Source: Candidatus Deferrimicrobiaceae bacterium (lineage in GTDB: Bacteria > Desulfobacterota > Deferrimicrobia > Deferrimicrobiales > Deferrimicrobiaceae). Taken from it: a stretch of 64,000 bases of DNA. The notes beneath the pieces were generated by a model, which was not told the origin of the DNA, made no database searches, and was given only the letters and a program-made list of their open reading frames with translations. The position numbers and the translations under genes were made by a program. Each line of letters starts with the position of its first letter. The stretch's first letter is position 1. Location: the NCBI GenBank assembly GCA_963725055.1, contig CAVRXE010000005.1, positions 2,973 to 66,972 of the forward strand, written 5' to 3'. Positions 16,068 to 60,041 of the stretch are shown piece after piece.

Positions 16068-16465
16068 CCGTCCCCCGCCGTGGAGAAAGAGGGTTCACGC
16101 TTCTCGAGGTGATCGTCGCGATCGCGCTCTTCGCGGCGGGGATCGTGGCGATCTCCCGGCTGTTCACCGGCTCGTTGCGCCTGTCGGGAGGGGCGAGGGA
16201 CGCATCCGCCGCAGCGATCTACGCCCGGCAGCGGATGGAGGAGGCGCTCCTCGCGCCCGATCCGGCCGAAGGGACGGAGCAGGGCGCCTTCGGCGAAGGG
16301 TACCGGTGGAAGCTGGAGACTGCGTTCGTGCCCCCGGAGGAGGTGAAGCCGTACGACGAGATCCGGTACCGGGTCACGGTGACGTGGGACGACGGGGGAG
16401 AGGAGCGTTCGACGGAGCTCACGGCCGGGCGGTGGCGATGGAGGAAGACCGATGCCGGCGCCTGA
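16064..16465 (+). CDS. gspI: Minor pseudopilin GspI-like
   Basis: GTG start overlapping the gspH stop (GTGA). Prepilin N-terminus ..RGERGFTLLEVIVAIALFAAG... About 133 aa. Confidence 0.75.
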   Translation: MTVPRRGERGFTLLEVIVAIALFAAGIVAISRLFTGSLRLSGGARDASAAAIYARQRMEEALLAPDPAEGTEQGAFGEGYRWKLETAFVPPEEVKPYDEIRYRVTVTWDDGGEERSTELTAGRWRWRKTDAGA

Positions 16466-17235: not shown

Positions 17236-17236
17236 G

Positions 17237-18145: not shown

Positions 18146-18159
18146 AGCGGTATCGCACC

Positions 18160-19605
18160 ATGATCGGGATCGACCCGTCCGGCGGTCGCCTGGCGATCGT
18201 GGCCGTACGCCGCGGCGTCGGCGGTGCCTCGCTCGCCGTTCCTCCCTTGTGGCATGAGCCGAGGACCACGAAGGAGCACGCCCGCTTCGAGGAGATCGAG
18301 GGAGTCCTCGGCGAGTTCGTCGCCCGCAACGGGCTGGTCGGCGCCGGGGCGGCTCTCGTTCTGCCCGCGGAGCGGGTCTATCTGGCGAGCGCGGCGTTTC
18401 CCCCGATGAAGGAACGGGACCTGCGGGACGCCGTCGGGATGGAGCTGGAGCGCCTCTTCCCTGTACCGCCCGCGGAGCTGCGCCACGGGTTCCGGCGTCT
18501 CGCCGGTCTTTCCGCGGGGGGAAAGATCCCCCTGATCGTCGCAGCGACCCCTTCGGAATACATCGACCGATGGGAGGAGATCGTCACACGGGCGGGCCTT
18601 TCGCTGTCCGCCGCGGTCCCCGCGGCGTGGGCGGTAGGCGACGCGCTATCGGGGCCGGGAGGCCCGTCGGGTGAACCTGGCCGCACGGCGGCCGTGCTCC
18701 GCGCGGCGGGTGCCGCGGTGGAGTGCACCCTGCTCGCCTCCGGCGAACCGTTCTTCTGCGCCTCCGGCCCCTGTTCGCCGGAATCGGCGCCCGAGGAAGG
18801 GCTCTCGCTGGCGCGTGTCGGGCTTGCCGACCCGCCGTCCTCCGCCGGTGATGGACCCGTTGACCTGTTCGCCCCGCAAGGATGGTACGGGAAGGAAGGG
18901 AAGCAGATCGAAGACGGGAGCGTCGTGTTCCGGGTCCGTGGCGATTTCGACCGCTCGGCGGTATCCGCTCTGTCCGGCGCGGGCGTGGGGGAAAGCGGCA
19001 CGGCGCCGGATCCGTTCGCCCTCCTTGGCGCATTCGGAGCGGCGCTCGGGGAAGGGCGGATGAACCTGCTTTCCCCGCCGCGGGGAGGGTCCGACTCGGG
19101 GATTTCCCGGTCGTTCCTCGGTGCGGCCGCCCTGGCCGCCCTCGCCCTCGGAATCGCTTGGCCCTACGCCGTCTCCTGGAAGGCGAAAGCGGAGCTTCGG
19201 AGACTGGACGCGCAGGTCGCCGCGCTGCGCCCCTTCGCGGAGCGGTACGAGGAGACCCTCTCGGATCTCGACGACGCCCAGGGACGGATCGCCGCGCTGC
19301 GGGAAGAGGCGTCGACGTCCGGGGAACCGCTGCAGATCCTCCGGGAGTTGACGGACCGGCTCCCGAACGGAACCTGGCTCCTCGCCCTGCGCATGGAAGG
19401 GAGGAAGGTGGATATCGAGGGGCTCTCTCCGTCGGCCAGCGAGATCTTCCCGGCCCTCACGCGGGACGGCCGGTTCCGCTCCGTGGAGTTCGGGGCGCCG
19501 ATCACCCGGCAGGCGGACAACATCGAGCGGTTCAAGATCCGGGGAGAGTTTGTCCCGCCGCCGCCGTCGGCTCCCGCATCCTCCGAGAAGGGAGCGGCGC
19601 GATGA
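18160..19605 (+). CDS. gspL: GspL-like assembly protein (PilM-like cytoplasmic domain fused to TM and PilN-like periplasmic domain)
   Basis: N-terminus MIGIDPSGGRLAIVAV.. is actin-like PilM/GspL. A single TM (..FLGAAALAALALGIAWPY..) follows, then a coiled coil and ..LPNGTWLLALRMEGRKVDIEG.. (PilN/GspL C-terminal type). Alternative starts: TTG 18142, 18109. Confidence 0.7.
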   Translation: MIGIDPSGGRLAIVAVRRGVGGASLAVPPLWHEPRTTKEHARFEEIEGVLGEFVARNGLVGAGAALVLPAERVYLASAAFPPMKERDLRDAVGMELERLFPVPPAELRHGFRRLAGLSAGGKIPLIVAATPSEYIDRWEEIVTRAGLSLSAAVPAAWAVGDALSGPGGPSGEPGRTAAVLRAAGAAVECTLLASGEPFFCASGPCSPESAPEEGLSLARVGLADPPSSAGDGPVDLFAPQGWYGKEGKQIEDGSVVFRVRGDFDRSAVSALSGAGVGESGTAPDPFALLGAFGAALGEGRMNLLSPPRGGSDSGISRSFLGAAALAALALGIAWPYAVSWKAKAELRRLDAQVAALRPFAERYEETLSDLDDAQGRIAALREEASTSGEPLQILRELTDRLPNGTWLLALRMEGRKVDIEGLSPSASEIFPALTRDGRFRSVEFGAPITRQADNIERFKIRGEFVPPPPSAPASSEKGAAR

Positions 19606-19624
19606 GTGCGGCGGTTGCTGTGCG

Positions 19625-20260
19625 ATGAACGCGGTGGGAGCGCTCCTCGCGCGCATTTCCGGGTTTTCCAGGCGGGAGAAGGCGATGTTGGCCGCGTGCC
19701 TTCTGGGCGTCGTCGTCTTCGCTGTCGCCAGTTGGGTGGTGATCCCGGCGCGGGCGGATTACGCGAGGAACCGGACCGCGATTCCCGCGCGCCGGGCCGT
19801 GATCGCGCGGTATGAGGCGTTCCGCCTTGGGCAGGACCAGGTCGACGAGGAACTCTTCGATCAGGTCCAGCGGATGGAGAAGTGGGAGGACGGCCTGCTG
19901 GTGGGGGAGACTCCGTCGGCGGCCGGGGTCTTCCTCCAGGGGCTCCTGAAGCCGCTCACCCAGCGGTCGGAGATCCGGGTGACGTCGATCCGGTCGCTGC
20001 CGCCGGTGAGGAAAGGGGCGTACACCGAGGTGTCCGTGCAGATCGAGATCCAGACTTCGACGGAGGGGCTTGCCCTCCTGCTGGCCGATCTCTCCCGGCA
20101 AACGAAGATCCTCCGGGTCGGGAAACTATTCGCCACCACGGGGGCGTATTACTATTCCGGGCAGGCGGCGCGAAAAGAAATCGTCGGCGTCTCGATGGTG
20201 GTGGCAGGCATCTCCGCGGCCCCCCTGGACGAGAAGACTCCGGGAAGGGGGGAAGAGTGA
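19625..20260 (+). CDS. gspM: GspM/PilO-like assembly protein
   Basis: Single N-terminal TM (..MLAACLLGVVVFAVASWVV..), position after gspL, and a ~210-aa size with ..YTEVSVQIEIQTSTEGLALLLADL.. as in GspM/PilO folds. Confidence 0.6.
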   Translation: MNAVGALLARISGFSRREKAMLAACLLGVVVFAVASWVVIPARADYARNRTAIPARRAVIARYEAFRLGQDQVDEELFDQVQRMEKWEDGLLVGETPSAAGVFLQGLLKPLTQRSEIRVTSIRSLPPVRKGAYTEVSVQIEIQTSTEGLALLLADLSRQTKILRVGKLFATTGAYYYSGQAARKEIVGVSMVVAGISAAPLDEKTPGRGEE

Positions 20261-21006: not shown

Positions 21007-23423
21007 ACGAAGAACACGAAGGAACGGGGAGAAGACGGATGAATCGGATCGGTTGGTTGCTCTGCGTCGCCGCGCTGTTCGCGGCGAACGTCGTCGCCGC
21101 TGAAGAAGTCTCTCCGCCGGTTGTCCCCATGGAGACGGCGGCCCCACCCGCCACCGGCGCTCCGGCGCCGGACAATGTGGATACCGTCGTTCCGGCTCCT
21201 CCCGCGCCGCCGGAGACGGCCATACCGCCTCCTTCGCCGCCGTCGGTGACCACCCCTCCGCCCCCGCCTTCCGCTCCCGACCGCCACTCCGCCTCCGCCT
21301 TCCGGGCCCGCCCGCCATTCCGCCTCCGCCTTCCGGTTCCCGACCGCCACTCCGCCCCCGCCTTCCGGGTTCCCGACCGCCACTCCGCCCTCTCCGGCGT
21401 ACCCGATCCGCAGGCCACCCGCCGCCGTCGTTCCCCCGGCAGGCGGTCCCGTCTCCTGCCGTGGGGGGCGGCGCCGGATTCTTCGTCAAGTTCAACAACG
21501 CGGACATCTACGAGGTGATTCACACGCTCGGGCGCGCCGCGGGGATCAACTACCTCATCGACCCGAGGGTCCGCGGCGTCGTGAACGTGCACACGCAAGG
21601 TGTGGTGAGGAAGGACGGCGCGCTGGACCTCCTGTTCTCCATCCTTAAAGTCAACGGGGCGACGGCGATCAAGGAAGGGGACACGTACCACATCGTCCCG
21701 ATGACCGAGGCGAAGACGGAGCCGCTCCTCCCGACGTTTCCCGGGGACAACGCGGCGAAGGCATCCCCCAATCAGCCTTCCATGCGCGCGTACCCGCTGC
21801 AGTACATCGCCGTGGCGGAGATGGCGAAGGTGATCAGGCCGTTCCTGACCCCGGGAGGCGAGGCGGTGGAAGTGGGCCGCGCGAACATCCTCCTGGTGGT
21901 CGACACGACGGCGAACCTGGAAAAGACCGCGCGCCTGGTGGAGTTGTTCGATTCCGAGGTGTTCCGGGCGGCGGGGATGAAGCTTTTCAAGTTGAAGGTC
22001 CTCGACCCGGAGGAGATGGCGAAGAACCTGGAGAACATCTTCGGAGCTCTCGACTTCTCCGCCACGCGGGGCGGAAGCCGTCGGGCATCAACTTCGTCCC
22101 CATCCCGCGGCTGTACGCCCTGCTGGTGGTCAGCGCGTCCCCCAAGACCATGGAGGACGTGGAGAAGTGGATCGGTGAACTGGACCGCACGGGAGGGGGA
22201 GCATCCCGATCGATCCACCGGTACCGCGTGAAGTACGGGAAGGTGAAGGACATCGCCGCCGTCCTGGAGAAGCTGTACCCCAGGAAAACCGCGTCTCTTG
22301 CCGCCGACAAGGCAACGGAGTTCAAGCCCGCAGTGGGACTCGGTCTCCCCGGCCAGGCGTCGTTCCCCTCGCAAACGCCACCGGCCGGACAGCCCGGGGG
22401 TGCGGTCGCCCCGGCGGCCGCCAAGACGGCGAAAGGGGAAACCGAGGTTTCCACGCAGCCCTTCGACATCATCCCGGACGAGGCGACGAACTCCCTGATC
22501 CTGCGGGCCAGCCTGTCGGAGTACGCGGACGCCCTGGAGATCCTGAAGGCGGTGGACGTCTACCCGCAGCAGGTGCTGCTCGAGGTGCTGGTGGGGGAGG
22601 TGAACCTCAAGGACGATCTGCGGCTCGGGATCGACTGGACGTGGACGGGCAGCGGCGGGGGATACAACCAGACCGCCACCCTCGCACCCGGCGCGCTCCC
22701 CGGGCTGAACAATTTCACCTACCTGATCGAGAAGACGGGGAAGCTGACGGCGGCGTTCCGGTCGCTGGCGGAGGACGGCCGGGCCTCGGTCATCTCCTCG
22801 CCGAGCGTCATCGCGACCAACGGGAAGAAGTCGAAGATCAACGTGGTGGACCAGATCCCCATCACCTCCTCGGTCCTGAACAGCGCCACGAACCCGCCGG
22901 TGACGACCACCACCGTGGAGTACCGCGACGTGGGCGTCATCCTCACCTTCACGCCGTTCATCAACGACGAAGGGCTGGTGACGCTCGAGATCGAGCAGGA
23001 GGTGAGCGATGTCAACACCCTCTCCGCGGCGTGAACGCGAACCCGACCTTCTTCAAGCGGAGCATCTCCACGAATCTGATCGCCTCGCAGGACCAGAGCA
23101 TCGTCCTGGGCGGGCTGGTGAAGGAGCGCAAGTCGCTCGACCGGAGCGGGCTGCCGTGGTTCTACAAGATCCCCGTTTTCGGGTGGATCTTCGGGTCCCG
23201 GACGGACAGCGTCAGCCGGAACGAACTGCTGATCTTCATCACGCCGCGCGTGATCCGCAGCGTGGAGCAGGGGATCCAGCTCAGCCGGGACTTCGAGGAG
23301 CGGGTGGCGCAGCTGAAGTCCCGCATGAAGGAGACGCAGGGGATCCGGCTGAAGGTCCAGCCGGTCTTGCCGGTGCCCGACCCGACGAGAAACATCCCCC
23401 CGGCCGAAACGCCGCCGCAGTAA
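21003..23423 (+). CDS. gspD: Type II secretion secretin GspD, at least 4 frame breaks as sequenced
   Basis: Signal peptide MNRIGWLLCVAALFAANVVAAEE (frame 0), then a Pro-rich tandem-repeat linker. N0-N3 domains follow (..FFVKFNNADIYEVIHTLG.., ..RAYPLQYIAVAEMAKVI.., ..NILLVVDT..), then the secretin core (..DWTWTG.., ..VISSPSVIATNGKKSKINVVDQIPI.., ..VEYRDVGVILTFTPFINDEGLVTLEIEQEVS.., ..IVLGGLV..IPVFGWIFG..ELLIFITPRVI). Frame changes lie in 21270-21340, at ~21462-21467, at ~22068-22071 and at ~23028. Confidence 0.85.
21274..21400 (+). repeat. Tandem 33/30-bp coding repeat (about 4 units) in the secretin N-terminal linker
   Basis: Units at 21274-21306, 21307-21336 (30 bp), 21337-21369 and 21370-~21400, with consensus TTCCCGACCGCCACTCCGCCNCCGCCTTCCGGG. 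This encodes (F)PTATPPPPSG. A related unit (VTTPPPPPSA) lies just upstream. Confidence 0.85.
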
Positions 23424-23438
23424 GACATCCCGCCGGGG

Positions 23439-23946
23439 TCATATCCAGCGGGAGAAGTCTCCGGGGAGCGTGTGCGACTTGTAACACGATGACGCCCTCG
23501 CGGCCGATGAGCACGTACGTGGGAATCCCGACCACCCCGTACGCCCGGGCCGCCTGTCCCTGTTCGTCGAGGAGAACCGGGTACCGGATCGCGCGCGACT
23601 TGACCGCCTGCTCGACCTTTTCCCGGGACTCCCTGAAGTCGAGCCCGAAGACCAGCAATTTTTCCTTGAGCGGTCCCGTGACCAGCGCGTTGATCTCCGG
23701 GATGGCCGCCTTGCACTCCGGGCACCACGTCGCCCAGAAGACGAGGAGGACCGGGGTCTTCCCGAGGAACGGTCCGAGCGTCACCTGCCGGCCATCGAGA
23801 TCCGGCAGGGTGAAATCCGCGGGCCGGTCGCTTCCCGCACCGGATGCCACGGCCCCGCCGGCTGACAGAAGGGCAGAATCGGGTCCCGCGAGAGCGACCC
23901 CGCACAGAAGGAACAGCATCGCGGCGACGGCGAACCGGCACGGCAT
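23439..23946 (-). CDS. TlpA/ResA-like periplasmic thiol:disulfide oxidoreductase, probable 1-nt frame break near the 3' end
   Basis: RBS GGAGGGGA. Signal/anchor MPCRFAVAAMLFLLCGVALAG, thioredoxin motif FWATWCPECK, and ..GVVGIPTYVLIGREGVIV... As sequenced the ORF runs on to 23281, overlapping gspD. Removing one base at ~23483-23485 gives ..VIVYKSHTLPGDFSRWI* with the stop at 23439-23441. Confidence 0.75.
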
Positions 23947-23996
23947 CGTCCCCTCCTTCCACCGTTCGATGGGTCCCGACCCGGGAGCGTTTCGGG

Positions 23997-24707
23997 TCAT
24001 ATCAGCCGCTTCCCCGCCTCGAGGAGAAGGTATTCGCCCGCCAGCAGGAGCACGACGCCGAACGCCCGCTGGACCTTCACCGTCCACCCCCCCCCCTTCG
24101 GGAGGTTCGAGACCAATCCCGCGAACGTGCCGAGTGCCACGACGGGAAGCCCCATCCCCAGCGCGAAGGTGAACAGGAGGGTCGCCCCGAAGAAGGGGCG
24201 CCCGCTCGCCCCGACATAGAGGAGCAGTCCCCCGAGCACCGGCGCCGTGCACGGCCCGACGACCAGGCCCGACAGCAGGCCCACGACGAAGGCGCCCCCC
24301 GCCCCCCGTGCCTTCCCCGGTGGCCCTCCGGCGCCGGCGAAGATCGCCAGTGCCGGGAGATGGAAGACGTCGAACAGGGAAAGGGCGAAGAGGATGCAGA
24401 CGTTCCCGAGGATCAGGTACGAGAGGGGGTGCGCCGTCGCCTCGCCGAACACGCTGCCGGAAAGCGCGGCCGCCATCCCGAGGGCCGCGTACGTCATCGC
24501 CATCCCGAGAGCGTAGGACGCGGATACGAGGAACGCCTGCCGGCGGGACCCCCCGGTGCGGCTTCCGATGTACCCCACCGTCACCGGGAGGATCGGGTAG
24601 ACGCACGGGGTGAAACTTGCGAGGATCCCTCCGAGAAAAGCGATGGCGTACGCAAGCGGGGAGCCCGCCTGGAGGTGCGCCTGGAACGAGGAGAAGAGCA
24701 TCTGCAT
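23997..24707 (-). CDS. ccdA: Cytochrome c biogenesis thiol-transfer membrane protein CcdA (DsbD transmembrane-domain family)
   Basis: MQMLFSSFQAHL.., two conserved Cys-Pro motifs (..ASFTPCVYPILP.., ..VVGPCTAPVLG..) and 6 hydrophobic helices. Confidence 0.85.
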   Translation of the reverse strand: MQMLFSSFQAHLQAGSPLAYAIAFLGGILASFTPCVYPILPVTVGYIGSRTGGSRRQAFLVSASYALGMAMTYAALGMAAALSGSVFGEATAHPLSYLILGNVCILFALSLFDVFHLPALAIFAGAGGPPGKARGAGGAFVVGLLSGLVVGPCTAPVLGGLLLYVGASGRPFFGATLLFTFALGMGLPVVALGTFAGLVSNLPKGGGWTVKVQRAFGVVLLLAGEYLLLEAGKRLI

Positions 24708-24772
24708 CGGGGCGGCGCTTTCCGTCCCCGGAGAGGGACCGGGAATCGATGGAATCAGTTGTCCCGGACAGT

Positions 24773-25555
24773 CTACCGGGCGCCGTTCAGGAGCGAGAGC
24801 AGCGCCTCCGCCTCCATGTAGCCGCTGACCATGCGCCCGTTGGGGAGGATCATGGTCGGCGTCCCCTCGATCTTCAGCCGGTCGGCGAGCTTCATCGTCT
24901 CGTTCACCGCGTCGCTCTCGCACGACGGGGCCGGGAGCTCCTTCCCGGCGTAGGCCTCGTCGAGCATCTTCTCCGATTTCGAGCAGACGACGGCGAGGCA
25001 ATTCCGGTACGTGGCCTTGTCGTTCCTGTTTCGCGGATACGGCATCACGAGGAACGCAACGTCCTTATCCTTCGCCGCCGCCTTTTTGATCTCCCCGTGC
25101 AGCTTCACGCAGTACGGGCAGGTGGGGTCGGTGAGGACGATGACCGCCTTCTTCGCCGCCTTGCTCCCGATCCGGACGGCGTCCTTGACCGGGATGGAAG
25201 CGACGTCCACGCGGTTCAGGTCCTGGTACCGCAGCCCGGTGAGGTTCTCCATGTTCGCCAGGCGGATGAACTGTCCGTTGAAGAGGTACTTCAGGGAATA
25301 GTCGAGGTAGATCGGATACGTTTTTCCGCTTCGCGCGACGTCCACCTCCCATACCCCGGGGAACGGCCCCGGCACGACGGCGACGACGTTGTCCACGACC
25401 TTCCCGAGCAGCTTCCCCGCCTCCTCTTTCGAGAGTTTGTGGCACTCCGTACAGTCCCCGGCGATCCCGGCCTCTTTCCGGAACGCAGCCGCGGGTGTGG
25501 AAAGGAACAGGGCGAGAAACGAGGCGAGGACGCAGGCGGTCAGGAACGGTTTCAT
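24773..25555 (-). CDS. DsbC/DsbG-like thioredoxin-fold protein with an N-terminal CxxCH motif
   Basis: RBS AAGGAGA. Signal peptide MKPFLTACVLASFLALFLSTPAAA, then ..GDCTECHKLSKEEAGKLL... The thioredoxin fold carries ..VLTDPTCPYCVKLH.. and ..IEGTPTMILPNGRMVSGY... Confidence 0.75.
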   Translation of the reverse strand: MKPFLTACVLASFLALFLSTPAAAFRKEAGIAGDCTECHKLSKEEAGKLLGKVVDNVVAVVPGPFPGVWEVDVARSGKTYPIYLDYSLKYLFNGQFIRLANMENLTGLRYQDLNRVDVASIPVKDAVRIGSKAAKKAVIVLTDPTCPYCVKLHGEIKKAAAKDKDVAFLVMPYPRNRNDKATYRNCLAVVCSKSEKMLDEAYAGKELPAPSCESDAVNETMKLADRLKIEGTPTMILPNGRMVSGYMEAEALLSLLNGAR

Positions 25556-25789
25556 CCGGAGTCTCCTTGTGGGGGGCATGGAAACAATTGTACACCGACT
25601 ACCGCGGCATTTCGCCGAATTCGAGGATGCGTTGCGTGGATCCACCTGCTTCGCCGCCCTTCCGTTCGGCCCTGCCTCCTGCCGCTTTCCCCATTGTCGG
25701 TGCCGGCTGTGGAAGATTGTTGTTGATAGGATCGGTTATTTTTGGGAAAATCTTTGTCATTCCAAATTCCGTTTTGTTTGGGGGTACGA

Positions 25790-34044: not shown

Positions 34045-35081
34045 TCAAGGGAGGTACTTCTGGAACTCTTGTACACGACGGCGACGAACAGGAGAAGGAG
34101 GCAGGCGAAGTCGATCCCCAGCGCGACCGGGGAGAACCGGACCACGGGGGCCAGGAAGACGTACCGCTCGACCAGGATCCCCGACAGGATGGAGAGGGCC
34201 GCGGCGGAGACCACGTACGGGTTCGATTTCGCCCGGGTGGACAGGAGCGCCGGGAAGGGGATGAAGAAGAGGAGGAAGAGGACCGCGACGCAAAGCTCGC
34301 GCAGGGGGGACGCGGACAACCTCCGTGCGAGGAAGCCGACCTCCTCGGGGAGGTTCCCGTACCAGATGGTGAGGAACTGGGCGAAGAAGAGTCCGGCCCA
34401 CATGAGGCTGAAGCCGAACATCAGGATGGAGAGGTCCGAAAGGTCCGATCGGGATCCGTGGCCGCGGTCCGCGGGGGGAGTTCCGCGGAACAGGAGGCAG
34501 AGGAGGGCCGAGACGGCGAACCCCCCGTAGATCGACTCGATGAAGAAGTATCCCCCGAGGAGCGCGCTGATCCAGGGGTACTCGAGGGACATGACCAGGT
34601 CGAAGGCGGTAAGGGTCTGGGACACGACGAAGACGAGGAGGTACCAGGCGGCGCGGGACTTCGTCCCTTCCCCGTCGGCGGGGGCGGCGGCGAACCGCCG
34701 GGCCGTGACGTAGGCGAGCAGCAGGAAGGCGAGGTTGCGGCCGATGAAGAAATCCTTCCGGAGCCAGATCCCCGGCTTGCCCGCCCACGGGTAGGAGTCC
34801 ACGAAGGGGATCAGCAGGAGGAGCAGGAACGCCGCCAGGAGGAGGAGCGGGGTGACCGAGAGCAGCTCCTTCCTCACGGAGCCGACCCACCGCGCGTTCA
34901 CCGTGGCTCCCGCCGCCGCCGCCGCGATGCACCCCTCGACGACCGCGATGAAGAAGAGGAACGCCAGGAGGAGCGATCCGCCCCTCCCGGCGGCGGGGGT
35001 CAACGAGACGAACGCCATGAGCGCTCCCGCTGCCGCGATGAGGAGGACCAGGCCGCCCTTCTTTTCCAGGAACGCCGTCAT
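34045..35081 (-). CDS. actF: Alternative complex III membrane subunit ActF-like; 3' end uncertain
   Basis: Polytopic membrane protein with the ActF-type motif ..WAGLFFAQFLTIWYGNLPEEVGFLARR... As sequenced it reads through into the amidotransferase ORF. A 1-nt repair near 34055 would end it ..VVYKEFQKYLP* at 34045. Confidence 0.6.
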
Positions 35082-35515
35082 CGCCGCTCACCGTCCTCGA
35101 CCAGGATCACGAACGCGTTCCCGTACTCCTCCCCCGACCGGATCCCCCGGAGGCTCGGCAGGCGGGACAGGAGGAGGAAGCCCGCGAACGTGGACAGGGC
35201 GCCGAACAGGATCGTGAGGGCGAACGCGATGATGAGGAAGGGCGGCAGCGAGACGACCGGTTTCCCTCCAACGATGAGCGGCCAGCTGAGGGAGGTCAGG
35301 ATGGTGAAGGCGAACCCCGAGACCGTGCCGGACGCCGCGCCGACGAGCGCGAAGAACCGGACCTTCGATCGCTTGCCGGGAAGGATCTCCTCCACCTCGG
35401 GGACGCCGAACGGCGTAATCACCCGGATCCTCTCCCCCGGAACGCCTTCCTCAACCAGTCCCCGCAGACGCTCGAGGAACTTTCCCTTCTCTTCGAAGAC
35501 CATCGGCCCGGCCAT
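35078..35515 (-). CDS. actD: Alternative complex III subunit ActD (DUF3341 type)
   Basis: 145 aa with a soluble N-terminal part and two C-terminal helices. Position between ActC and ActF. ATGA-type overlaps on both sides. Confidence 0.7.
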   Translation of the reverse strand: MAGPMVFEEKGKFLERLRGLVEEGVPGERIRVITPFGVPEVEEILPGKRSKVRFFALVGAASGTVSGFAFTILTSLSWPLIVGGKPVVSLPPFLIIAFALTILFGALSTFAGFLLLSRLPSLRGIRSGEEYGNAFVILVEDGERR

Positions 35516-36831
35516 CAGAGGTGTTCCTTGATTTCCGAGATGGACAGCACGGGCAGGTTCTTCACGAAGAGCAGGTAGAGCATGAAGAACATCCCGAAAC
35601 TCCCGAGGGAGATCCCCACTTCGACGTAGGTGGGTCGATACGTGCCCCAGACGTACGGATCGAAGTCATGCGCAAGGGACGTGACGATGATCACGAACCG
35701 CTCCAGCCACATTCCGACGTTCACCAGCAGGGACACAACCAGGAGATACGTGGTGTTCCGCCGAAGGCGCCTGGCGAACAGCGTCAGGGGGACGAGGGAA
35801 TTGCAGAAGAGCATGGCCCACGTGAGGTACCGGAACTCCCCCAGGGCGCGGTACCGGAACGCCTCCCTCTCGAAGACGTTTTCGCCGTAGGTGGCCAGGC
35901 CGAACTCGACGATGTAGGCGTAGGTCACGATGAGGGAGGTGAAGAGGAGGATCTTCGCGATGCTCTCGAAGTGATCGTCGGTGATGTACTCGTGGAGGTT
36001 CATGGCCTTCCGGAGGGGGACCACAAGGGTGATGACCATGGCGGTCCCGGAGAAGATCGCCCCGGCCACGAAGTACGGGGCGAAGAGGGTGGTGTGCCAC
36101 CCCGGGACGATGCTCATGGCGAAGTCCCAGGAGACCACGGAGTGGACCGACGCCACGAGGGGGGTGGCGAAGGCGGCCAGGAAGAGGTAGAGCATGCCGT
36201 AGTGCCGCCACTCCCTGTCCGTGCCCTTCCATCCGAGGGCGAGGACGGAGAAGATCCTCTTCCGGATCCCCTCGACGCGCTGTTTCGCGGCCGCGAAGTC
36301 GGGGAGCATGCCCACGTAGAAGAAGACGACGCTCACGGTGAAGTACGTGCCTACCGCGAAGACGTCCCAGATCAGGGGAGACCGGAAGTTCACCCAGAGT
36401 TGCCGCTGGTTAGGGTATGGGATGAGGTAGTAGAAGACCCAGGACCGCCCCAGGTGGATGAGGGGGAACAGGCCGGCGACCATGAGGGCGAAGACGGTCA
36501 TCGCCTCCGCGGCGCGGTTGAAGCTCGTGCGGTATTTTGCCCGGAAAAGGAAGAGGACCGCCGAGATCAACGTCCCCGAATGGGCGATCCCCACCCAGAA
36601 AACGAAGTTCGTGATGTAGATGGCCCAGTTCACGGGGTGGGTGTACCCCGCGACGCCGAGGCCGTTCCGGATCTGGTAGGCCCAGAGGATTCCGCCGAGG
36701 ACCACCAGCGACGCCGTTACCGCGAGGCCGGCGAGGTAAAGGCGGCCCGGCTTCCCCATCGCCGCGAGGATGTCCCGGTCCACCTTGTCGTACTTGTCGG
36801 CGTTTCCCATGGCGACGTCGTCCCGGTTCAC
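35515..36831 (-). CDS. actC: Alternative complex III quinol-interacting membrane subunit ActC (NrfD/PsrC family)
   Basis: 438 aa with ~10 helices. NrfD-like motifs: ..PVNWAIYITNFVFWVGIAHSGTLISA.., ..LIWDVFAVGTYF... Confidence 0.85.
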   Translation of the reverse strand: MNRDDVAMGNADKYDKVDRDILAAMGKPGRLYLAGLAVTASLVVLGGILWAYQIRNGLGVAGYTHPVNWAIYITNFVFWVGIAHSGTLISAVLFLFRAKYRTSFNRAAEAMTVFALMVAGLFPLIHLGRSWVFYYLIPYPNQRQLWVNFRSPLIWDVFAVGTYFTVSVVFFYVGMLPDFAAAKQRVEGIRKRIFSVLALGWKGTDREWRHYGMLYLFLAAFATPLVASVHSVVSWDFAMSIVPGWHTTLFAPYFVAGAIFSGTAMVITLVVPLRKAMNLHEYITDDHFESIAKILLFTSLIVTYAYIVEFGLATYGENVFEREAFRYRALGEFRYLTWAMLFCNSLVPLTLFARRLRRNTTYLLVVSLLVNVGMWLERFVIIVTSLAHDFDPYVWGTYRPTYVEVGISLGSFGMFFMLYLLFVKNLPVLSISEIKEHL

Positions 36832-39614
36832 GGCTTCCTGCCCCGCAGGTAGTGGACCGACGGTTCGGTCCCCAGGGTTTCGAATACACGGTAGGCCCGT
36901 TCGGAATGGGCCAGCCGGTAGACCTTCGATTCCTTATCGAGGAGGTTGCCGAACGTCAGCGCTCCGGTGGGGCAGCTCTGCGCGCAGGCCGTCGTGAACT
37001 CCCCGTCCCTGACCTTCCTTCCCTCGTCCTTCGCCTTGTCCTTGGCGCCCCGGATCCGCTGGATGCAGAAGGTGCATTTTTCCATCACTCCGACTTCCCT
37101 CGCCGGCACGTCGGGGTTCAGCATCCGGTCGGTCGGTTCCGGCCACGGGTGTTGCCGCCAGTTGAACCGGCGCACCTTGTAAGGGCAGTTGTTGGAACAG
37201 TACCGCGTTCCCACGCACCGGGCGTACACCTGGACATTCAGCCCTTCGGGGTTGTGGTGGGCTGCGAAGACCGGGCAGACCGATTCGCACGGCGCGCTGT
37301 GGCACTGCTGGCAGAGCATGGGGAGGAACGCGACCTCCCCCTTTTCATAGAACGGCTCGATCCGCAGCCACGACATCTCGCGGCCCTTCAGGTGGTCCGC
37401 TTTTCCCGCAACGGGCACGTTGTTCTCGACGTTGCAAGCCGCCACGCAGGCGGCGCAGCCGTTGCACCGTTCAAGGTCCACGGCCAACGCCCACCGGTAC
37501 TCCTTGTGTTCGTGCACGGGGTAGAGGGTCCACCGTTTATGGCGGCGCTCCTCATCAAGGTGCACCGGATCGGGGATGAGGCCGCGTCCCTGCTGGGAGA
37601 AGGAGCCCGAGAGGATGGGGATCTCGACCGTCTTCCCGGTCTTCGTGATCCCGACGCCACCGATGGTGTCCACCGGTCCGCCCGTTCGCGGATCCGTCAA
37701 GATCGGAGGGGCGGGGATCGCGTCGCGGTAGACGACGAAGACCCCTCCGGGGAGGCCCGGCTGGACCTTCACCGGCAGAACTGCCTTCCAGCCGCCCGAT
37801 GCTATCGTCACCTCGTCCCGGTCCCGCAAGCCCGCCCGCGCCGCGTCCTCCTCGGACACGGAGACCCAGGGGCCGTACGTGATCGTGGTGAGCGGGTCGG
37901 GGATCTCGGAGAGGATCGGCAGGATCCGGCTCCGCCCGTCGAAGGTCCGCGGGGAGGGGGTAAGGAACAGGACGGGCTTCCCGGCTTCCACCGCCGGCCC
38001 GGCGCCCCGGAGGGCGGAGGCGGCCCGCTTCCCGTCGAGGGAAACCGGCTTCGTCGGCAAGGTCTCCTCGATGTACCCCTGCCGGAGGAGCAGGCTCCTT
38101 CCGGACTCTCCGAGCCGCTTCTCCCATGCCGCGGCGAGAAGGTCCCTGTAGCCGCCGGACGATCGCCTCCCCGAAGCCTTTCCGAGGAGCCCGAGGAGCG
38201 CGTCCCCGTCGGACAAGGTGTCGTGCAGGGGGGGGAGCACCGGCTGGAGGAGGGACACGACGCCTCTCCTGGGCTCGACGTCGCCCCACGACTCGAGGGA
38301 GTGGGAGAGCGGAAGGACCAGGTCGACCTCGCGCAAGGTTTCGTCGAGGAACTCGCCCATCCCGACCGAGAGGCCCGCCTTTTTCAGGTTCTCACGGAAC
38401 GTGAGTCGCGGCGGCAGGGAGAAGACGGGGTTGGTCCGGAAGAGGAATACGACCCCGGCTTCCCCCTTTCCCATCCGGGCGGAGAGATCCTCCATGTCCC
38501 GGAGCGTCCCGACGGCGCGGTAGTTCTCGCTCCTTGCGAAATCGACACGTTCCGGGATGGCTCCCGTAACCCATTGGATCAGAGCGGCGGCCGACGCGAC
38601 TTCGCGGCCTCCCGTCTGCGCCGTCCCGACCCCGCCGGCGATCACGAGAGGACGCTTCGCGGCGGCGAGGCGGTCCGCGATCTCCTTCAGCGACTCCGGC
38701 GGGATGCCCGTCTCCCCGGAGACCTTCGAAGCGGCTGTCCGGGGGAAGGCGGCAAGGAGTTCCTCCGGCAGCCGTACCTTCGGGGACTTCTTTTCCAGGA
38801 CCTCACGGAGCAGGAAGGAGAGGAGGAGCGTTTCCCGACCCGGGGCGACCGCGTACCTTCGATCCGCGTTTGCCCCGGTGAGCGACATATGGGGTTCCAC
38901 GTGGTACCAGAGGAAATCCCCCCCGGACCGGGCGGAGGAGATTTTCCGGGTGTAGGCGACCGGGGTGACGTACGTTTCGAGGAGGTCCGCCCCGACCGTC
39001 AGCAGGAAATCCGCCTTCTCGATCCGGTAATGGGGGAGGTCCCTTTCTCCGAACAGGAGGCCGTTCGCGTCCTTCTCGGCGGTGTGGGAGTACGTCTCGT
39101 ATCCGGGGAGACGTTCGACCCCCAGCCGTTCGCACACGGCGTCGGCGAGCCGGGAGAGCGAGCCGGTCGTCCGGCCGGACAGGAAAAGGTCTTTCCTGCC
39201 TCCTTGCCGGGATGCCGCCAGGGAATCCGCCACCCGGGAGAAGGCGTCCTCCCAGGAGATGGGCCGAAGTTTCCCCCCGTCCCGCGCCATGGGGCCGCGC
39301 ACTCTCTCCGGATGATAAAGGCGGTACAGGGAGGATTGGCCCCGGACGCAAAGCCCTCCGTCGCTCACCGGATGACCGGGAATCCCCTCGAGCTTGACCG
39401 GCCGCCCCTCCCGCACCCTCGCCAGCACCCCGCATCCGGCGGGACATTCCGTGCACGTCGAGGGGTGGAAGCTCGCTTCCCCGGGGACGATTCCCTCCTC
39501 CGGCGGAAGGAGGTAGGAGGTGAATTTCGCGGAACGGTTCGGCGACCCGCACGCGGACATCACCGTGGAGCCCGAGATCACCCCGAGGAGCCAAAGGAAG
39601 TCCCTTCGCTTCAT
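36828..39614 (-). CDS. actB: Alternative complex III subunit ActB (molybdopterin-oxidoreductase-like domain fused to a 4Fe-4S ferredoxin domain)
   Basis: Twin-arginine signal MKRRDFLWLLGV.., N-terminal Cys cluster CTECPAGCG, and a long MopB-like region. C-terminal FeS motifs: CNGCAACVAACNVENN, CQQCHSAPCESVCP, CVGTRYCSNNCPYKVRRFN, KCTFCIQR. 928 aa and intact. Confidence 0.9.
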   Translation of the reverse strand: MKRRDFLWLLGVISGSTVMSACGSPNRSAKFTSYLLPPEEGIVPGEASFHPSTCTECPAGCGVLARVREGRPVKLEGIPGHPVSDGGLCVRGQSSLYRLYHPERVRGPMARDGGKLRPISWEDAFSRVADSLAASRQGGRKDLFLSGRTTGSLSRLADAVCERLGVERLPGYETYSHTAEKDANGLLFGERDLPHYRIEKADFLLTVGADLLETYVTPVAYTRKISSARSGGDFLWYHVEPHMSLTGANADRRYAVAPGRETLLLSFLLREVLEKKSPKVRLPEELLAAFPRTAASKVSGETGIPPESLKEIADRLAAAKRPLVIAGGVGTAQTGGREVASAAALIQWVTGAIPERVDFARSENYRAVGTLRDMEDLSARMGKGEAGVVFLFRTNPVFSLPPRLTFRENLKKAGLSVGMGEFLDETLREVDLVLPLSHSLESWGDVEPRRGVVSLLQPVLPPLHDTLSDGDALLGLLGKASGRRSSGGYRDLLAAAWEKRLGESGRSLLLRQGYIEETLPTKPVSLDGKRAASALRGAGPAVEAGKPVLFLTPSPRTFDGRSRILPILSEIPDPLTTITYGPWVSVSEEDAARAGLRDRDEVTIASGGWKAVLPVKVQPGLPGGVFVVYRDAIPAPPILTDPRTGGPVDTIGGVGITKTGKTVEIPILSGSFSQQGRGLIPDPVHLDEERRHKRWTLYPVHEHKEYRWALAVDLERCNGCAACVAACNVENNVPVAGKADHLKGREMSWLRIEPFYEKGEVAFLPMLCQQCHSAPCESVCPVFAAHHNPEGLNVQVYARCVGTRYCSNNCPYKVRRFNWRQHPWPEPTDRMLNPDVPAREVGVMEKCTFCIQRIRGAKDKAKDEGRKVRDGEFTTACAQSCPTGALTFGNLLDKESKVYRLAHSERAYRVFETLGTEPSVHYLRGRKP

Positions 39615-48513: not shown

Positions 48514-48597
48514 GCGGGACCTGCTTAATCGGAAAGGAGTTCAATCCGATATACGTGACGTTTCTTTCCTCAAGCGGAACATGAAAAGAGGATGCAC

Positions 48598-49140
48598 ATG
48601 ACCATCCAGATAAATAGCCCGGCGCCGGCATTCGAGTTGTCAGGGATTGTGGGGAAGCAGTTCCAGAAGGTCAAGTTGTCTGACTACACGGGGAAGTGGG
48701 TCATCCTGTTTTTCTACCCATTGGATTTCACCCCCATATGACACTCGGAGATCCTCGAGTTCTCCCGGCGGGAGAGCGAATTTTCGGTAGAAGGCGCGCA
48801 GATCCTCGGGGTCAGTACGGACAGCAAGTTTTCCCACTTGGCATGGATCGATCAGGAACTTGGGGAGTTGAACTACCCCCTGCTTGCCGATTTCACCAAG
48901 CAGGTTTCGAAGGAGTACGGAGTTCTGCTGGAGAGACTCGGGGCCGCGCTGCGGGGAACGTTCATCATCGGTCCAGACGGGCTCGTTCGGGCCTACAGCG
49001 TGCAGGACTTGACCGTGGGAAGGAGCGTCGACGAGATTCTGCGGCTCGTTTCCGCGCTCAAAACCGGGGAGTTGTGCCCCGTCGGCTGGCGCCCCGGGGG
49101 GCCATTTATTCCGCCAATCCCGAAAAACGCCCAGCGATAG
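48598..49140 (+). CDS. 2-Cys peroxiredoxin with in-frame TGA at the peroxidatic position (probable selenocysteine peroxiredoxin)
   Basis: RBS AGAGGA lies 5 nt before ATG 48598. MTIQINSPAPAFEL..GKWVILFFYPLDFTPI-TGA(48739-48741)-HSEILEFS..GVSTDSKFSHLAWI..LRGTFIIGPDG..GELCPVGWRPG. The TGA aligns with the Cys of the canonical FYPLDFTFVCPTE motif, and the same frame stays Prx-like for 133 more codons. Confidence 0.75.
48760..48776 (+). promoter_or_regulatory. SECIS-like hairpin downstream of the in-frame UGA
   Basis: UUCUCCC-GGC-GGGAGAG forms a 7-bp stem (one G-U pair). The G-rich apical loop begins 26 nt after the UGA, within the 16-37 nt range used for bacterial SECIS elements. Confidence 0.5.
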
Positions 49141-55738: not shown

Positions 55739-57028
55739 TTATTTTTTATCGTACTCCCGGACGCGGCACCAGGTCTCCCGGGTGAAGGAGACCGCCGCCA
55801 CCGACAGGCAGGAGCTCAGGAACAGCCACAGGAATGCCGCCGAATAGGCGCGCGCATCGTAGATTCGCGCCCCGTTGACCAGCAGGCCCCCCCAATGCCC
55901 GTCGAGGATGCTCCCGAGCGCCGGTTGCAGGATCGCCGCCAGGCCCAGGGGTCCCATGTTGACCACTCCGGCCACGGCCCCCGCCGCCCCGGGATGGTTG
56001 GCCTCCCGGGAGTGGGCGTAGCCGATGATCAGGCCCCCGGAGGTGAACCCGATGGCGGCGAACAGGGGATACAACAGGATCCGGGGGATGTCCCCCCGGA
56101 AAAGAAAGATCCCCCACAGCGTCGCGCTCGCGGCGTTCGCCATCAAATAGGGAAGCTTTCGCCGCCCGAGGCGGTCGGACAGCGCCCCGAGGGTGGGGCT
56201 CCCGATGGCCCAGGCGATCAACATGGTCGAGGTCATCGCGGCCGCGGGACTGCGGTCTAGCCCGTACACCTGGGTCAGGTAGGGAACGCCCCATAAACCG
56301 GCGAACACCAGGACCGGAGCGGCCGACAGGCCGGCGGCGGCCAGCAGCAGCCAGGTTTCCCGCCGGGCCGATACGGCGCGCAGCGCGCGCAAGGGGGGCA
56401 GGCTGCCGCTCTCGACCACCGAGGCGTGGACGAAGCTTGTGAAACCGCGCTCTCCCGGGTCGTCCCGCACAACCACCCAGACCGCCGCGGCCAGGGCGAA
56501 CGTGCACGCGGCGCTCGCCACCATCGCGGTCCGCCAGCCGAAGAGGCTTACGGCCTCCGAGAGCGGCACGCCGGCGAGCACGCCGCCGATATTTCCCAGG
56601 AGCAGGGCAAGGCCCGTCACCGTGGCGAACCGGTTGGCCGGGAACCAGTGCCCGGCGAGCTTCATGCAGGTGACGAACGCGACGCCGACCGCCGCTCCGA
56701 CCAGCAGACGGCCCGCGTAGGCCATCCACAGGTGGTCCGCGAGCCCGAACATCAGCGTGCCGACCGCGGCCAGGAATGCCGCCACGGCGCTCAGGCGCCT
56801 CGGGCCGATCCCGTCCGCCAGAAGGCCGCTGGGGATCTGCATCACCGTGTAGGAATAGAAGTAGGTGGCGGACAGATTCCCGAGAAGGGCCCCGCCGATG
56901 TCGAATTCGCGCATCAGCTCGTCCACCATCACGGCCGGGGCGACGCGCTGGAAGAACCCGATCAGGTAGAAGCCGGCCACCAATCCCCACATCAGCCAGG
57001 CCATCCAGACGGGTGCGTTACGGGACAT
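55739..57028 (-). CDS. MFS transporter
   Basis: 429 aa with 12 helices and ..YSYTVMQIPSGLLADGIGPRRL.. (MFS loop 2-3 motif). Confidence 0.85.
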   Translation of the reverse strand: MSRNAPVWMAWLMWGLVAGFYLIGFFQRVAPAVMVDELMREFDIGGALLGNLSATYFYSYTVMQIPSGLLADGIGPRRLSAVAAFLAAVGTLMFGLADHLWMAYAGRLLVGAAVGVAFVTCMKLAGHWFPANRFATVTGLALLLGNIGGVLAGVPLSEAVSLFGWRTAMVASAACTFALAAAVWVVVRDDPGERGFTSFVHASVVESGSLPPLRALRAVSARRETWLLLAAAGLSAAPVLVFAGLWGVPYLTQVYGLDRSPAAAMTSTMLIAWAIGSPTLGALSDRLGRRKLPYLMANAASATLWGIFLFRGDIPRILLYPLFAAIGFTSGGLIIGYAHSREANHPGAAGAVAGVVNMGPLGLAAILQPALGSILDGHWGGLLVNGARIYDARAYSAAFLWLFLSSCLSVAAVSFTRETWCRVREYDKK

Positions 57029-57171
57029 GGAACGGAAACTTTACCGGATCCTGTCGGTCACATCAAGGAGTTCCCTTTCCCTTTTCCGTTCCCCGGGAAT
57101 TTGTATAGACTGTTGGGCGTCGGGAGGCTTCGGTCGGCCCGGCCCGGCCGACGGAAATCACCACGGAAGGA

Positions 57172-60041
57172 ATGCGTGCGATGCCCCTGCGCTTGAGGAA
57201 AGAGGATTTTCTTGCTCTCCCGGAGGCATACCGGGTTTTCCACGCAGGCATCTCTCCCCCCATCCCCTCCTCCAGGATCTTCTGCGACCCCTTCCGGACG
57301 CTCGCTTTCGGCACGGACGCCAGTTTCTACCGCCTCGTCCCGAAAATCGTCGTCAAGGTGAACACCCCGGAGGAGGTCGCGCATCTTCTGCGGACCGCGG
57401 CGCCCTTGAACATTCCCGTCACGTTTCGCGCCGCCGGCACGAGCCTGTCGGGCCAGGCCGTGACGGATTCCGTCCTGGTGGTGCTGGCCGGAGGGTGGCG
57501 GGACTGCGTTCTCCATGCCAACGGGGAGAAGATCTCGCTGGGGCCGGGGGTCATCGGGGCCGAGGCCAACGCCCGCCTCGCGCCGTACCGGCGGAAGATC
57601 GGCCCGGACCCCGCGTCGATCAACCATTGCATGATCGGGGGGATCGCCGCCAACAACGCGAGCGGCATGTGCTGCGGAACGGCGCAGAACAGCTACCGGA
57701 CCGTCGAGAGCATGAAGATCATCTTCCACGATGGAACGGTACTGAACACCGCCGACCCGGAGTCGCGCCGCTCCTTCCTGACGTCCCACGCGGAGATGGT
57801 CCGGGGGATCGAAGAGATCCGGGACGAGATCGCCGGAGACGGCGTTCTCCGGCAGCGGATCCGGGACAAGTTCCGCATCAAGAACACCACGGGGTACAGC
57901 ATCAACGCCTTCGTGGATTACACAGACCCCGTCGACATCCTTCTCCACCTGATGATCGGTTCCGAAGGGACCCTGGGGTTCATCGCGGAAGTCACGTACC
58001 GGACCGTGGAGGAGCAGGCGTTCAAGGCATCCGCCCTGATCCTGTTCCCGGACATCTGGAACGCGTGCAGGGCGACGATCAAGCTCAAGACCGGCCCGGT
58101 GTCCGCCGTCGAGCTGATGGACCGCGCTTCCCTGCGGTCCGTCGAGGACCAGAAAGGGATGCCGGCCTACCTGAAAGGCCTGGGGGAATCCGTGACGGGG
58201 CTCCTGGTGGAGACGCGGTCCAACGATGCGGAGTCGCTGGCGAGGCAGGTGGAGGAGCTCCTGGGACTCCTTTCCGATGTCCCGACCGTCTTTCCTGCCG
58301 CCTTCACGGACCGGAAGGCGGAGTACGAGAAGCTCTGGGACGTCCGGAAGGGGCTTTTTCCCGCCGTCGGGGCGGCACGGCAGATCGGAACCACGGTGGT
58401 CATCGAGGACGTGGTGTTTCCCATCGAGACGCTCGCGGACGCGACCGTGGAGCTCGAGGGGCTGATGAAGAAGCACGGATACGACGACGGGATCATTTTC
58501 GGCCACGCCCTGGAGGGGAACCTCCACTTCGTCTTCACCCAGGATTTCAGCGACCCCGGGGAGGTGGCGCGCTACCAGCGGTTGATGGAAGACGTGTGCG
58601 ACATGACGGTGAAGAAGTACGACGGGTCCCTCAAGGGGGAGCACGGCACGGGCCGGAACATGGCCCCGTTCGTGGAGATGGAGTGGGGGGAGAAGGCGTA
58701 TGCGTTGATGAAGCGGATCAAGCGGGCATTCGACCCGAAACGCCTCCTCAGCCCCGGCGTGATCATCAACGACAACCCAAGGATATACCTGGAAGACCTG
58801 AAGCCCCTGCCGAAGGTGCACGAGATCATCGACAAATGCATCGAGTGCGGGTTCTGCGAGATCATGTGTCCGTCCAGGGACCTCACGACGACGCCGCGGC
58901 AGCGCATCGTCATCCGGCGGGAGATCTCCCGGCTGGGGGCTGTCGGAGGCGACGGGCAGGCGCTTCGCCGCCTCGAATCCGATTATTGCTACCTGGGCGA
59001 GCAGACGTGCGCGACGGACGGATTGTGCGCCACGACCTGCCCCGTGTCGATCAACACGGGGGAACACACGAAGGAGCTTCGGTCCCTGCAAAAAGGACGC
59101 TTCGGCCGGTCCGCAGCCCGGTGGACCGCCGGCCACTACGCAACGGTCACCGCCGGGGTCCGGGGGGGCTTGCCGCGTTGGGAGCGGCAAGGATGGTGCT
59201 CGGGGACCGCGCCCTGGGCTCCGCGGCGCGGGGGCTCAGGGCCCTTTCGGGAGACCGGCTTCCCCTTTGGAATGCCCGCATGCCGGGCGCGGCCCCGGCG
59301 CAGACGTTCCGGCGCACGTCCACCGGCTCCGCCCGCAAGGTGGTCTATTTCCCCAGTTGCATCGTGCGGACGATGGGGCCTTCCCCCGGGGACCCGGACC
59401 AGCGCGCCCTCTTCGAGGCCATCCGCTCCCTGCTCGAGAAGGCCGGGTACGAGATCCTGTATCCTCCCGACATGTCCCGCCTGTGCTGCGGCATGCCGTT
59501 CGGGAGCAAGGGGTTCTTCGAGGAAGCCGAGCGGAAGCGCGGGGAGCTCGAAGCGGCCCTTCTGGCATGCAGCCGGGACGGGGAATACCCGGTGCTCTTC
59601 GATACGAGCCCGTGCCTCTACACGGTGAAGCAGAAATCGGACCCGCGCCTGCGGCTCTACGAGCCGGTCGAGTTCATCCATACCTTCCTCATGGACGCCC
59701 TGGAGTTCACGAAAATCCCGGAGACGATCGCCGTGCACGTCACGTGCAGCTCGATCAAGCTGGGTCTCCGGGAGAAGTTCCTCGCGGTGGCGGGCGCGTG
59801 CGCGGAAACGGTGGTGGTCCCCGATCGCGCGGGGTGCTGCGGCGTGGCGGGCGACCGGATCTTCCTCTTCCCGGAGCTCAACGAATCGGCGCTTTCAGCG
59901 CTCCGCGACGGCTTGCCGGCCGGATGCCGATCAGGAGTTTCGAACAGCCGCACCTGCGAGATCGGGCTCTCCCTCCAAAGCGGCCTGCCGTACCAGTCCA
60001 TCGCCTACCTGGTCGACCGATGCACGGCGCGGAAGGTGTAG
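57172..60041 (+). CDS. FAD-binding / 4Fe-4S / CCG-domain dehydrogenase (D-lactate or glycolate dehydrogenase fusion type), one frame break as sequenced
   Basis: FAD PCMH domain (..FRAAGTSLSGQA.., ..IGGIAANNASG..), ..GEHGTGRNMAPF.., ferredoxin motifs CIECGFCEIMCP and CATDGLCATTCP, and CCG domains (..YFPSCIVR.., ..LCCGMPFG.., ..GCCGVAGD..). The frame changes in the G7 run at 59162-59168. Confidence 0.85.

Follow-up and report, generated by a model that had tools for sequence, protein, structure and literature searches.

Peroxiredoxins that carry selenocysteine (Sec) in place of the peroxidatic cysteine are an established family in anaerobic bacteria. Zhang et al. counted 12 members and inferred five independent Cys-to-Sec conversions, the hosts including Syntrophobacter, Syntrophus, Anaeromyxobacter, and Geobacter metallireducens (PMC1794560), and a 2026 review places these proteins (Prx, PF00578, TxxU), with the motif PxxxTxxU, above its block "Predicted with high confidence" (PMC13188914). 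The stretch of DNA analyzed here (hereafter, the window) comprises 64,000 nucleotides of contig CAVRXE010000005.1, from a Candidatus Deferrimicrobiaceae bacterium. At 48598–49140 of its forward strand it holds what is very probably a genuine selenoprotein gene, coding for a typical 2-Cys peroxiredoxin with a peroxidatic Sec and bearing a hairpin of the bacterial Sec insertion sequence (bSECIS) type inside the coding region. Its likeness to the Sec-peroxiredoxins of anaerobic Deltaproteobacteria and Clostridia is one of family-level category (PMC1794560; PMC13188914). Unlike the catalogued members, those of the clade to which this gene belongs come from uncultured bacteria, the only named relatives being metagenome-assembled genomes (MAGs) of Ca. 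Deferrimicrobiaceae and "Deltaproteobacteria", and they form a separate lineage of which databases list only fragments.

The PrxU family (NF040737, peroxi_PrxU), whose prototype is PrxU of Eubacterium acidaminophilum, shares with the window gene the AhpC/TSA fold, a UGA codon at the peroxidatic position of the TxxU motif, and a SECIS hairpin in the coding region just downstream. The two differ in layout. PrxU examples measure about 200 residues, and most have no resolving Cys; their hairpin starts some 10 nt past the UGA, and its loop is AGUU or GGUC. In the window clade the proteins have 180 residues, the loop begins 25 nt downstream of the UGA, and the resolving Cys persists in most members. 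A second set of UGA-containing peroxiredoxins, unrelated to the window clade, was found at L067:5133, L143:286, L150:2248, L156:4148, and L160:1771, and only one of these five (L150) has a Cys at the resolving position. The two of them that were scored, L067 and L156, are true PrxU proteins (306.8 and 302.2 bits). As a positive control, the PrxU-family genes show a UGA followed by a different SECIS-type hairpin, the stem bases of which change in pairs. Among the NCBIfam models, the PrxU equivalog fits the window protein best, but the score of 153.4 bits lies far below the cut-off of 270 and below both controls, and identity with PrxU was therefore rejected.

Reading Frame and Active Site

Between ATG 48598 and TAG 49140 the frame has one internal stop only, TGA 48739–48741, and its full-length product would have 180 residues with Sec at position 48. 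A Shine-Dalgarno-like AAGAGGA, as read from the sequence, occupies 48586–48592 on the same strand, with the ATG 5 nt downstream. The region 5′ of the gene is conserved from about 48560 onward in the orthologs of contigs L081–L083, and the orthologs are colinear with the window gene across its entire length. The mechanical list of open reading frames (ORFs), as an earlier note on this DNA had remarked, has 48838–49140 as its sole entry in the frame of the gene.

When the stop is replaced by Cys, the translation matches the Pfam domain AhpC-TSA (PF00578) at 132.2 bits, against a cut-off of 26 (E = 1.3e-38). The closest solved structure is human Prx2 (E = 5.9e-54), and the top structures are Prx2, Prx3, and Prx4, at E values of 1e-54 to 1e-48. 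In the alignment with Prx2, the TGA column is that of the peroxidatic Cys of FTFVCPTE. The active-site motif P41-L-D-F-T45-P-I-U48 (48718–48741, + strand), which is of the PxxxTxxU form, aligns with PLDFTFVC; the codon of the conserved catalytic Arg119 (48952–48954, +), within LRGTFII, aligns with YRGLFII; and the TGC codon of the resolving Cys160 (49075–49077, +), within GELCPVGW, aligns with GEVCPAGW. Pro41, Thr45, Arg119, and the resolving Cys are thus all kept in the window protein, which combines the marks of a typical 2-Cys peroxiredoxin: the AhpC-TSA domain, the PxxxTxxC/U motif with Arg119, and the C-terminal resolving Cys160. The earlier note had described a single frame with TGA as its sole interruption, placed the TGA exactly on the peroxidatic Cys, and recognized the resolving Cys; translation bears out the first of these statements, and the Prx2 alignment and the Pfam match bear out the others. 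Its figure of 133 codons after the TGA should read 132 sense codons.

Conservation of the UGA Codon

A protein search gives close matches of two kinds. One consists of Cys-peroxiredoxins of full length; their identity does not exceed 80%, and the homology search gave no full-length match to the window protein above that value. The other consists of C-terminal fragments of 114–118 residues, with 86–100% identity and varying start codons, a pattern that arises because gene callers stop at a conserved in-frame stop codon. Accordingly, public gene calls divide the locus into pieces of 47 and 114–118 residues, some of them named "AhpC", and no other records were found for the clade.

At the DNA level, codon 48 is TGA in about 20 contigs besides the window (L001, L002, L081–L091, L104, and L165–L170). 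None of the orthologs fetched as DNA, all from other metagenomes or MAGs, has TGC or TGT at this position, so that the comparison of this codon among orthologs, which the earlier note had proposed, gives TGA throughout. The MAG contigs L001 (Ca. Deferrimicrobiaceae) and L002 (Deltaproteobacteria UBA11853) read DFTPI-TGA-(L/Q)SEILEF, and TGA is found in all 11 of the JGI metagenome contigs (L081–L091). Two conspecific contigs from other samples, identical to the window gene at 542 (L165) and 539 (L166) of 543 nt, both carry the TGA in a frame that is otherwise fully open. At the other extreme, TGA-bearing orthologs range down to 77% amino-acid identity. Even an error-ridden copy (L104:949–1476) retains ATA-TGA-CAC and the hairpin described below; like it, the copies at L096:115–507 and L110:2029–2298 have frameshifts or chimeric ends.

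Eleven full-length copies, with pairwise nucleotide identities as low as 79% and a mean synonymous divergence (dS) of about 0.42–0.46, give a ratio of nonsynonymous to synonymous divergence (dN/dS) of 0.23 for the part preceding the TGA and 0.18 for the part that follows, the latter over the 122 codons 49–170. Purifying selection thus acts on either side of the TGA, from which it follows that the whole frame is translated. A lack of conservation past the stop is what the earlier note had named as evidence against read-through; coding conservation instead continues. The gene therefore has the properties by which bacterial selenoproteins are recognized, namely a conserved UGA aligned with the Cys of homologs and coding conservation on both sides of it. 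The nearest Cys homologs have TGT or TGC where the orthologs have TGA, and the in-frame UGA at 48739–48741 (+) is most probably read as Sec. TGA terminates more than half of the long ORFs of the window, including Pfam-confirmed genes, and global reassignment of UGA was rejected because most genes of the window end in UGA.

A SECIS-Type Hairpin That Goes with the UGA

The hairpin GUUCUCCC-GGC-GGGAGAGC occupies 48759–48777 of the + strand. Its stem (48759–48766 paired with 48770–48777) has 8 bp, one U-G pair among them, and its apical loop, GGC, has 3 nt (48767–48769). The distance from the UGA is 17 nt to the stem and 25 nt to the loop. The folding energy is −12.6 kcal/mol and the probabilities of the core pairs are 0.93–0.98 in a 105-nt context. 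The earlier note had reported a hairpin of 7 bp at 48760–48776; the hairpin is real, but the stem is longer than was stated. The published bSECIS model asks for a loop of 3–9 nt on a stem of 4–16 bp, for a G among the first two bases of the loop, for a distance of 16–37 nt between UGA and loop, and for a minimum free energy (MFE) of at most −7.5 kcal/mol, the usual loop consensus being N1-G-[G|U]-N-N2 (PMC13188914). On all four counts, the size of loop and stem, the loop G (GGC or GUC), the spacing, and the energy, the hairpin lies inside these bounds. When the loop is read as C-G-[G/U]-C-G, both the form of the window and its sole natural variant fit the consensus exactly.

Every TGA-bearing copy has the identical hairpin, synonymous sites included, save for a toggle between G and U at the second loop base. 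Around it, the block 48757–48782 (+) is invariant at the nucleotide level with a single variable column, 48768 (G/T), which corresponds to that base. Of all invariant runs in the gene, the two longest (gene positions 160–170 and 172–185) adjoin at the hairpin, and synonymous diversity has its minimum at codons 51–60. The consensus structure given by RNAalifold for 14 sequences is this same hairpin. In the closest Cys homologs, P0003 (TGT, contig L161) and P0002 (TGC, contig L163), the protein reads SKRTPEF where the window has SRRESEF, and the hairpin cannot form. Hence, the hairpin goes with the UGA. The earlier note's suggestion of a SECIS-type element gains from the agreement with the published model and from this absence in the closest Cys homologs; its suggestion of read-through as Sec is likewise supported, by the TGA of the orthologs, by the low dN/dS downstream, and by a hairpin that, relative to the nearest Cys homologs, occurs only with the UGA.

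A close relative, P0001 (L162:1317–1838, 80% identity), keeps the hairpin exactly and has GGG (Gly) for TGA and PFV for PLD. Decay of the copy, an inactive paralog, or an assembly artifact on this contig of 1.9 kb would each account for it.

A Putative Selenoprotein SelD in Relatives

Contig L167 (104 kb) contains a UGA-bearing ortholog of the peroxiredoxin gene and, 2.4 kb away, a selD gene on the − strand (L167:6342–7466; TIGR00476, 318 bits against a cut-off of 125). Upstream of its called start, the selD frame runs on through SSCAG-TGA-ASKLGQG. The position of this UGA corresponds to the catalytic Cys17 of Escherichia coli SelD. Twenty nucleotides past it lies a hairpin, GGGCAGGG-GGU-CCUUGCCC, with a folding energy of −12.7 kcal/mol. 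Identical UGA and hairpin are present in the selD genes of L171 (GCA_037439645.1; near 9929) and L172 (near 9965). The public gene calls of selD are truncated at the N-terminus, with products of 334–346 residues. From these sequences, the lineage that bears the peroxiredoxin has a selenophosphate synthetase that is itself a predicted selenoprotein. This UGA-containing selD, close to an ortholog in L167, is strong circumstantial evidence of a working Sec trait in the relatives, without being proof of one in the organism of the window.

Alternative Explanations

Several observations weigh against assigning Sec to this codon. The 75-nt segment 48736–48810 folds with a z-score of 0.05 and its MFE structure does not contain the hairpin, which appears, however, in other folding contexts and in the partition function. 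An equally good SECIS-type hairpin follows 3.4% of the 1,260 TGA triplets of the window. Rfam gives no SECIS match, either in the whole window at gathering thresholds or in 48690–48860 at permissive ones, where only chance matches appear. The stem shows no covariation, since all 8 pairs are invariant among the 14 sequences, which speaks neither for nor against the structure. Pfam scans of ORFs and a tRNA search revealed no selA, selB, selC, or selD in the 64 kb of the window, and no tRNA-Sec is found in the window or in the 25 related loci fetched. The hairpin alone is weak evidence, and its weight comes from sequence comparison. Even there, the longest invariant run of third codon positions is not significant by itself (p = 0.27), and the SECIS argument rests instead on the block of full-nucleotide invariance, at a position predicted beforehand, and on the absence of the hairpin from Cys homologs.

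Four other explanations of the UGA can be weighed against this evidence. The earlier note had itself cautioned that the TGA might be a miscalled TGC or TGT, in an otherwise ordinary Cys-peroxiredoxin, and the window does have probable errors, with a secretin spread over three frames (21461–23423) and a shift near 59150–59300 in a gene for an FAD-oxidase/CCG protein. Yet those errors are indels rather than substitutions, the same TGA occurs in about 20 contigs assembled independently from differing samples and with differing assemblers, and TGA co-occurs with the hairpin whereas the TGT and TGC homologs are without it. With TGA in every ortholog, two conspecific strains included, an assembly or base-calling error is so improbable that the caution can be dropped. 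The public gene calls, taken at face value, describe an N-terminal peptide of 47 residues and, as a separate product translated from an internal start, a C-terminal protein of about 100–118 residues. The called starts, however, differ between orthologs (M, V, or L, at varying positions), so that no internal start is conserved, and nowhere in the gene is conservation higher than in codons 49–63, the stretch from the UGA to the called starts. Besides, a peroxiredoxin deprived of the Pro, the Thr, and the peroxidatic residue cannot be catalytic, and we give this explanation practically no credence.

The gene might also be a dead relic in which the UGA terminates translation, either throughout the clade or in this organism alone after loss of its Sec machinery. 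No such machinery is visible in the window, the gene contexts vary and L171 and L172 do not have the gene at the syntenic site, and the copy in L162, with GGG at the site and a D-to-V change in the PLD motif, looks like decay. On the other hand, dN/dS is 0.18 over 122 codons past the UGA; the frame is intact in all members of the clade and stays open in the conspecific strains, the hairpin is invariant, and a relative that carries the gene has a selD that itself appears to encode Sec. Such decay is thus very unlikely. The UGA might also be read through with a different amino acid, as sequence data cannot tell which one goes in. SelB-dependent recoding of UGA to Cys has been proposed for some uncultured bacteria: a tRNA resembling tRNA(Sec), charged with Cys and delivered by SelB, might decode it as Cys, or near-cognate suppression might give Trp or Cys. 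But selD, needed only for the use of selenium, is present in a relative and contains a UGA there, UGA is an ordinary stop elsewhere in the window, and replacement of Cys by Sec at the peroxidatic site of peroxiredoxins is documented (PMC1794560; PMC13188914). Read-through to anything other than Sec accordingly has a very low probability.

If the gene encodes a Sec-peroxiredoxin, as we think, its expression and function can be outlined by analogy. From established bacterial Sec biology, the hairpin at 48759–48777, whose loop starts 25 nt past the UGA, would act as a bSECIS element. It would bring SelB, with GTP and Sec-tRNA(Sec) bound, to a ribosome pausing at the UGA (48739–48741), where Sec would be inserted instead of translation being terminated. 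From peroxiredoxin chemistry, Pro41, Thr45, and Arg119 would activate the selenolate of U48, whose attack on the peroxide would yield a selenenic acid; Cys160 of the partner subunit would resolve this into a selenenylsulfide, to be reduced in turn by a thioredoxin-type reductant. We infer Sec insertion, its dependence on SelB, and this catalytic cycle for the window protein. General knowledge of Sec decoding and of peroxiredoxin chemistry is left unchanged by the finding.

Origin of the Sec Form

The Cys sisters P0002 and P0003 (72–73% identity) and the eukaryotic Prx1–4 share the architecture of the window protein, including its active-site residues (Pro, Thr, and Arg) and a resolving Cys within GELCP(V)GW. 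P0002 and P0003 are short forms (173–174 residues), as is the window protein, whereas human Prx2 has two extra segments (QYTDEH and a GGLG-containing loop). The sisters differ from the window protein in having Cys (TGT/TGC) and no hairpin, in their FV-C-PT flanks where the window has PI-U-HS, and in lacking the C-terminal tail PP(I/L)PKN. Prx-SUH (NF045827) is another Sec-containing thiol peroxidase and has, like the window protein, a His after the Sec; membership of this family was rejected on the score (29.9 bits against a cut-off of 298) and on the motif, which is CxxU in Prx-SUH and TxxU in the window.

In a neighbor-joining distance tree, built without support values, the window clade is monophyletic and its sister group consists of L089 and P0001; together these are sister to the Cys forms P0002 and P0003. 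The whole set is nested in a large radiation of Cys-peroxiredoxins, far from PrxU. L089 has the UGA within canonical flanks (FTFV-U-PTE) and the short C-terminus of the Cys sisters. In the main clade, the near-universal Pro after the catalytic residue is replaced (PI-U-H/Q/N/L) and the PP(I/L)PKN tail has been gained. Within the Sec-peroxiredoxins, one subclade (L083, L084, and L086; P0018, P0067, P0080, and P0089) has Thr for the resolving Cys (TGELTPVGW).

This looks like a Cys-to-Sec conversion in the window lineage separate from that of the PrxU family. On the simplest reading of the tree and the alignments, the lineage would derive from a Cys-peroxiredoxin by its own conversion, after which the flanks were remodeled from FV-C-PT to PI-U-(H/Q/N/L)(S/T), and later one subclade would have exchanged the resolving Cys for Thr. 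The missing resolving Cys hints that this subclade moved to a one-Sec mechanism, in the manner of most PrxU examples retrieved here. A bolder idea, which we put forward tentatively and consider rather doubtful, is that this Sec-peroxiredoxin evolved independently and that the clade is seen shortly after its Cys-to-Sec switch, with the stages still visible. If so, the acquisition of Sec may have set off a stepwise rewiring of the catalytic cycle toward a one-Sec mechanism, and this in a candidate phylum for which no use of selenium is reported in the literature searched. The candidate phylum in question, which includes Ca. Deferrimicrobiaceae, is Deferrimicrobiota (once called MBNT15); the genome paper for this phylum does not mention selenium, and no paper mentioning both selenoproteins and MBNT15 was found in that literature. 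In the present analysis, the window was placed in this lineage solely through the label of L001 and a partial synteny with that contig.

For the evolution of selenoproteins, the relatives provide a natural series for the change from Cys to Sec and for the origin of a coding-region SECIS element: Cys sisters without hairpin, UGA with canonical flanks, UGA with remodeled flanks, and a subclade without the resolving Cys. For annotation, the consequence is that the PrxU model misses the clade, so that automatic pipelines will go on breaking up the gene or labeling it a pseudogene, a fault that a model made for the clade would mend in dozens of records. For ecology, the gene points to a selenium-dependent defense against oxidative stress in uncultured relatives of the Deferrimicrobiaceae.

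Genomic Context

Transporter genes (MFS, a ClC channel, and a Na+/H+ exchanger) lie upstream of the peroxiredoxin gene, and genes for a 2-hydroxyacid dehydrogenase and a TRAP transporter lie downstream; none of the flanking genes is an obvious redox partner. A scan for promoters and terminators near the gene gave nothing useful. In L001 and L090, the ClC gene is directly upstream (76% nucleotide identity), whereas the window has the additional exchanger gene in between. The neighbors in L167 and L168 are wholly different from those of the window, the Sec-peroxiredoxin gene of L167 being flanked by one gene for a CBS-domain protein and one for an MFS transporter. In the otherwise syntenic gap of L171 (7743–7815) and L172 (7772–7877) the gene is absent and there is just a GC-rich, terminator-like hairpin. 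Given these variable neighbors and the absence from a syntenic site, the gene must be fairly easily gained, lost, or moved.

The sole tRNA gene of the window is a tRNA-Pro, and tblastn with the SelD of the lineage found no match in the window. A scan of the window for ORFs readable through a single TGA, with inspection of a thiol-disulfide cluster and of a GlpC-like CCG domain, revealed only Cys forms and no further selenoprotein gene. The thiol-disulfide cluster (23281–25645, − strand) consists of a DsbC-like protein with CPYC (24773–25645), a DsbD transmembrane protein (23997–25001), and a TlpA/ResA-like thioredoxin with WCPEC (within 23281–24606), all with Cys and no UGA. The CCG domain belongs to a fusion of FAD-linked oxidase, 4Fe-4S, and CCG domains (GlcD/GlpC-like; 57172–60041, +) whose frame changes near 59150–59300, the CCG-domain tail following the frame of ORF 57027–60041. 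A GlpC-type selenoprotein was rejected here, both CCG motifs having Cys.

The secretin (GspD/PilQ-like; 21461–23423, +) extends over three overlapping frames, 21461–22231, 22126–23034, and 22641–23423, which points to frameshifts, whether from indel errors of the assembly or in a pseudogene. It stands at the end of a cluster of pseudopilin and type II secretion system-like genes (about 15632 to 20260). Farther along, an ActD subunit of a module resembling alternative complex III is encoded at 35078–35515 (−), and in the region upstream, to about 41500, the large − strand ORFs 35515–36831 and 36828–39614 adjoin ActD.

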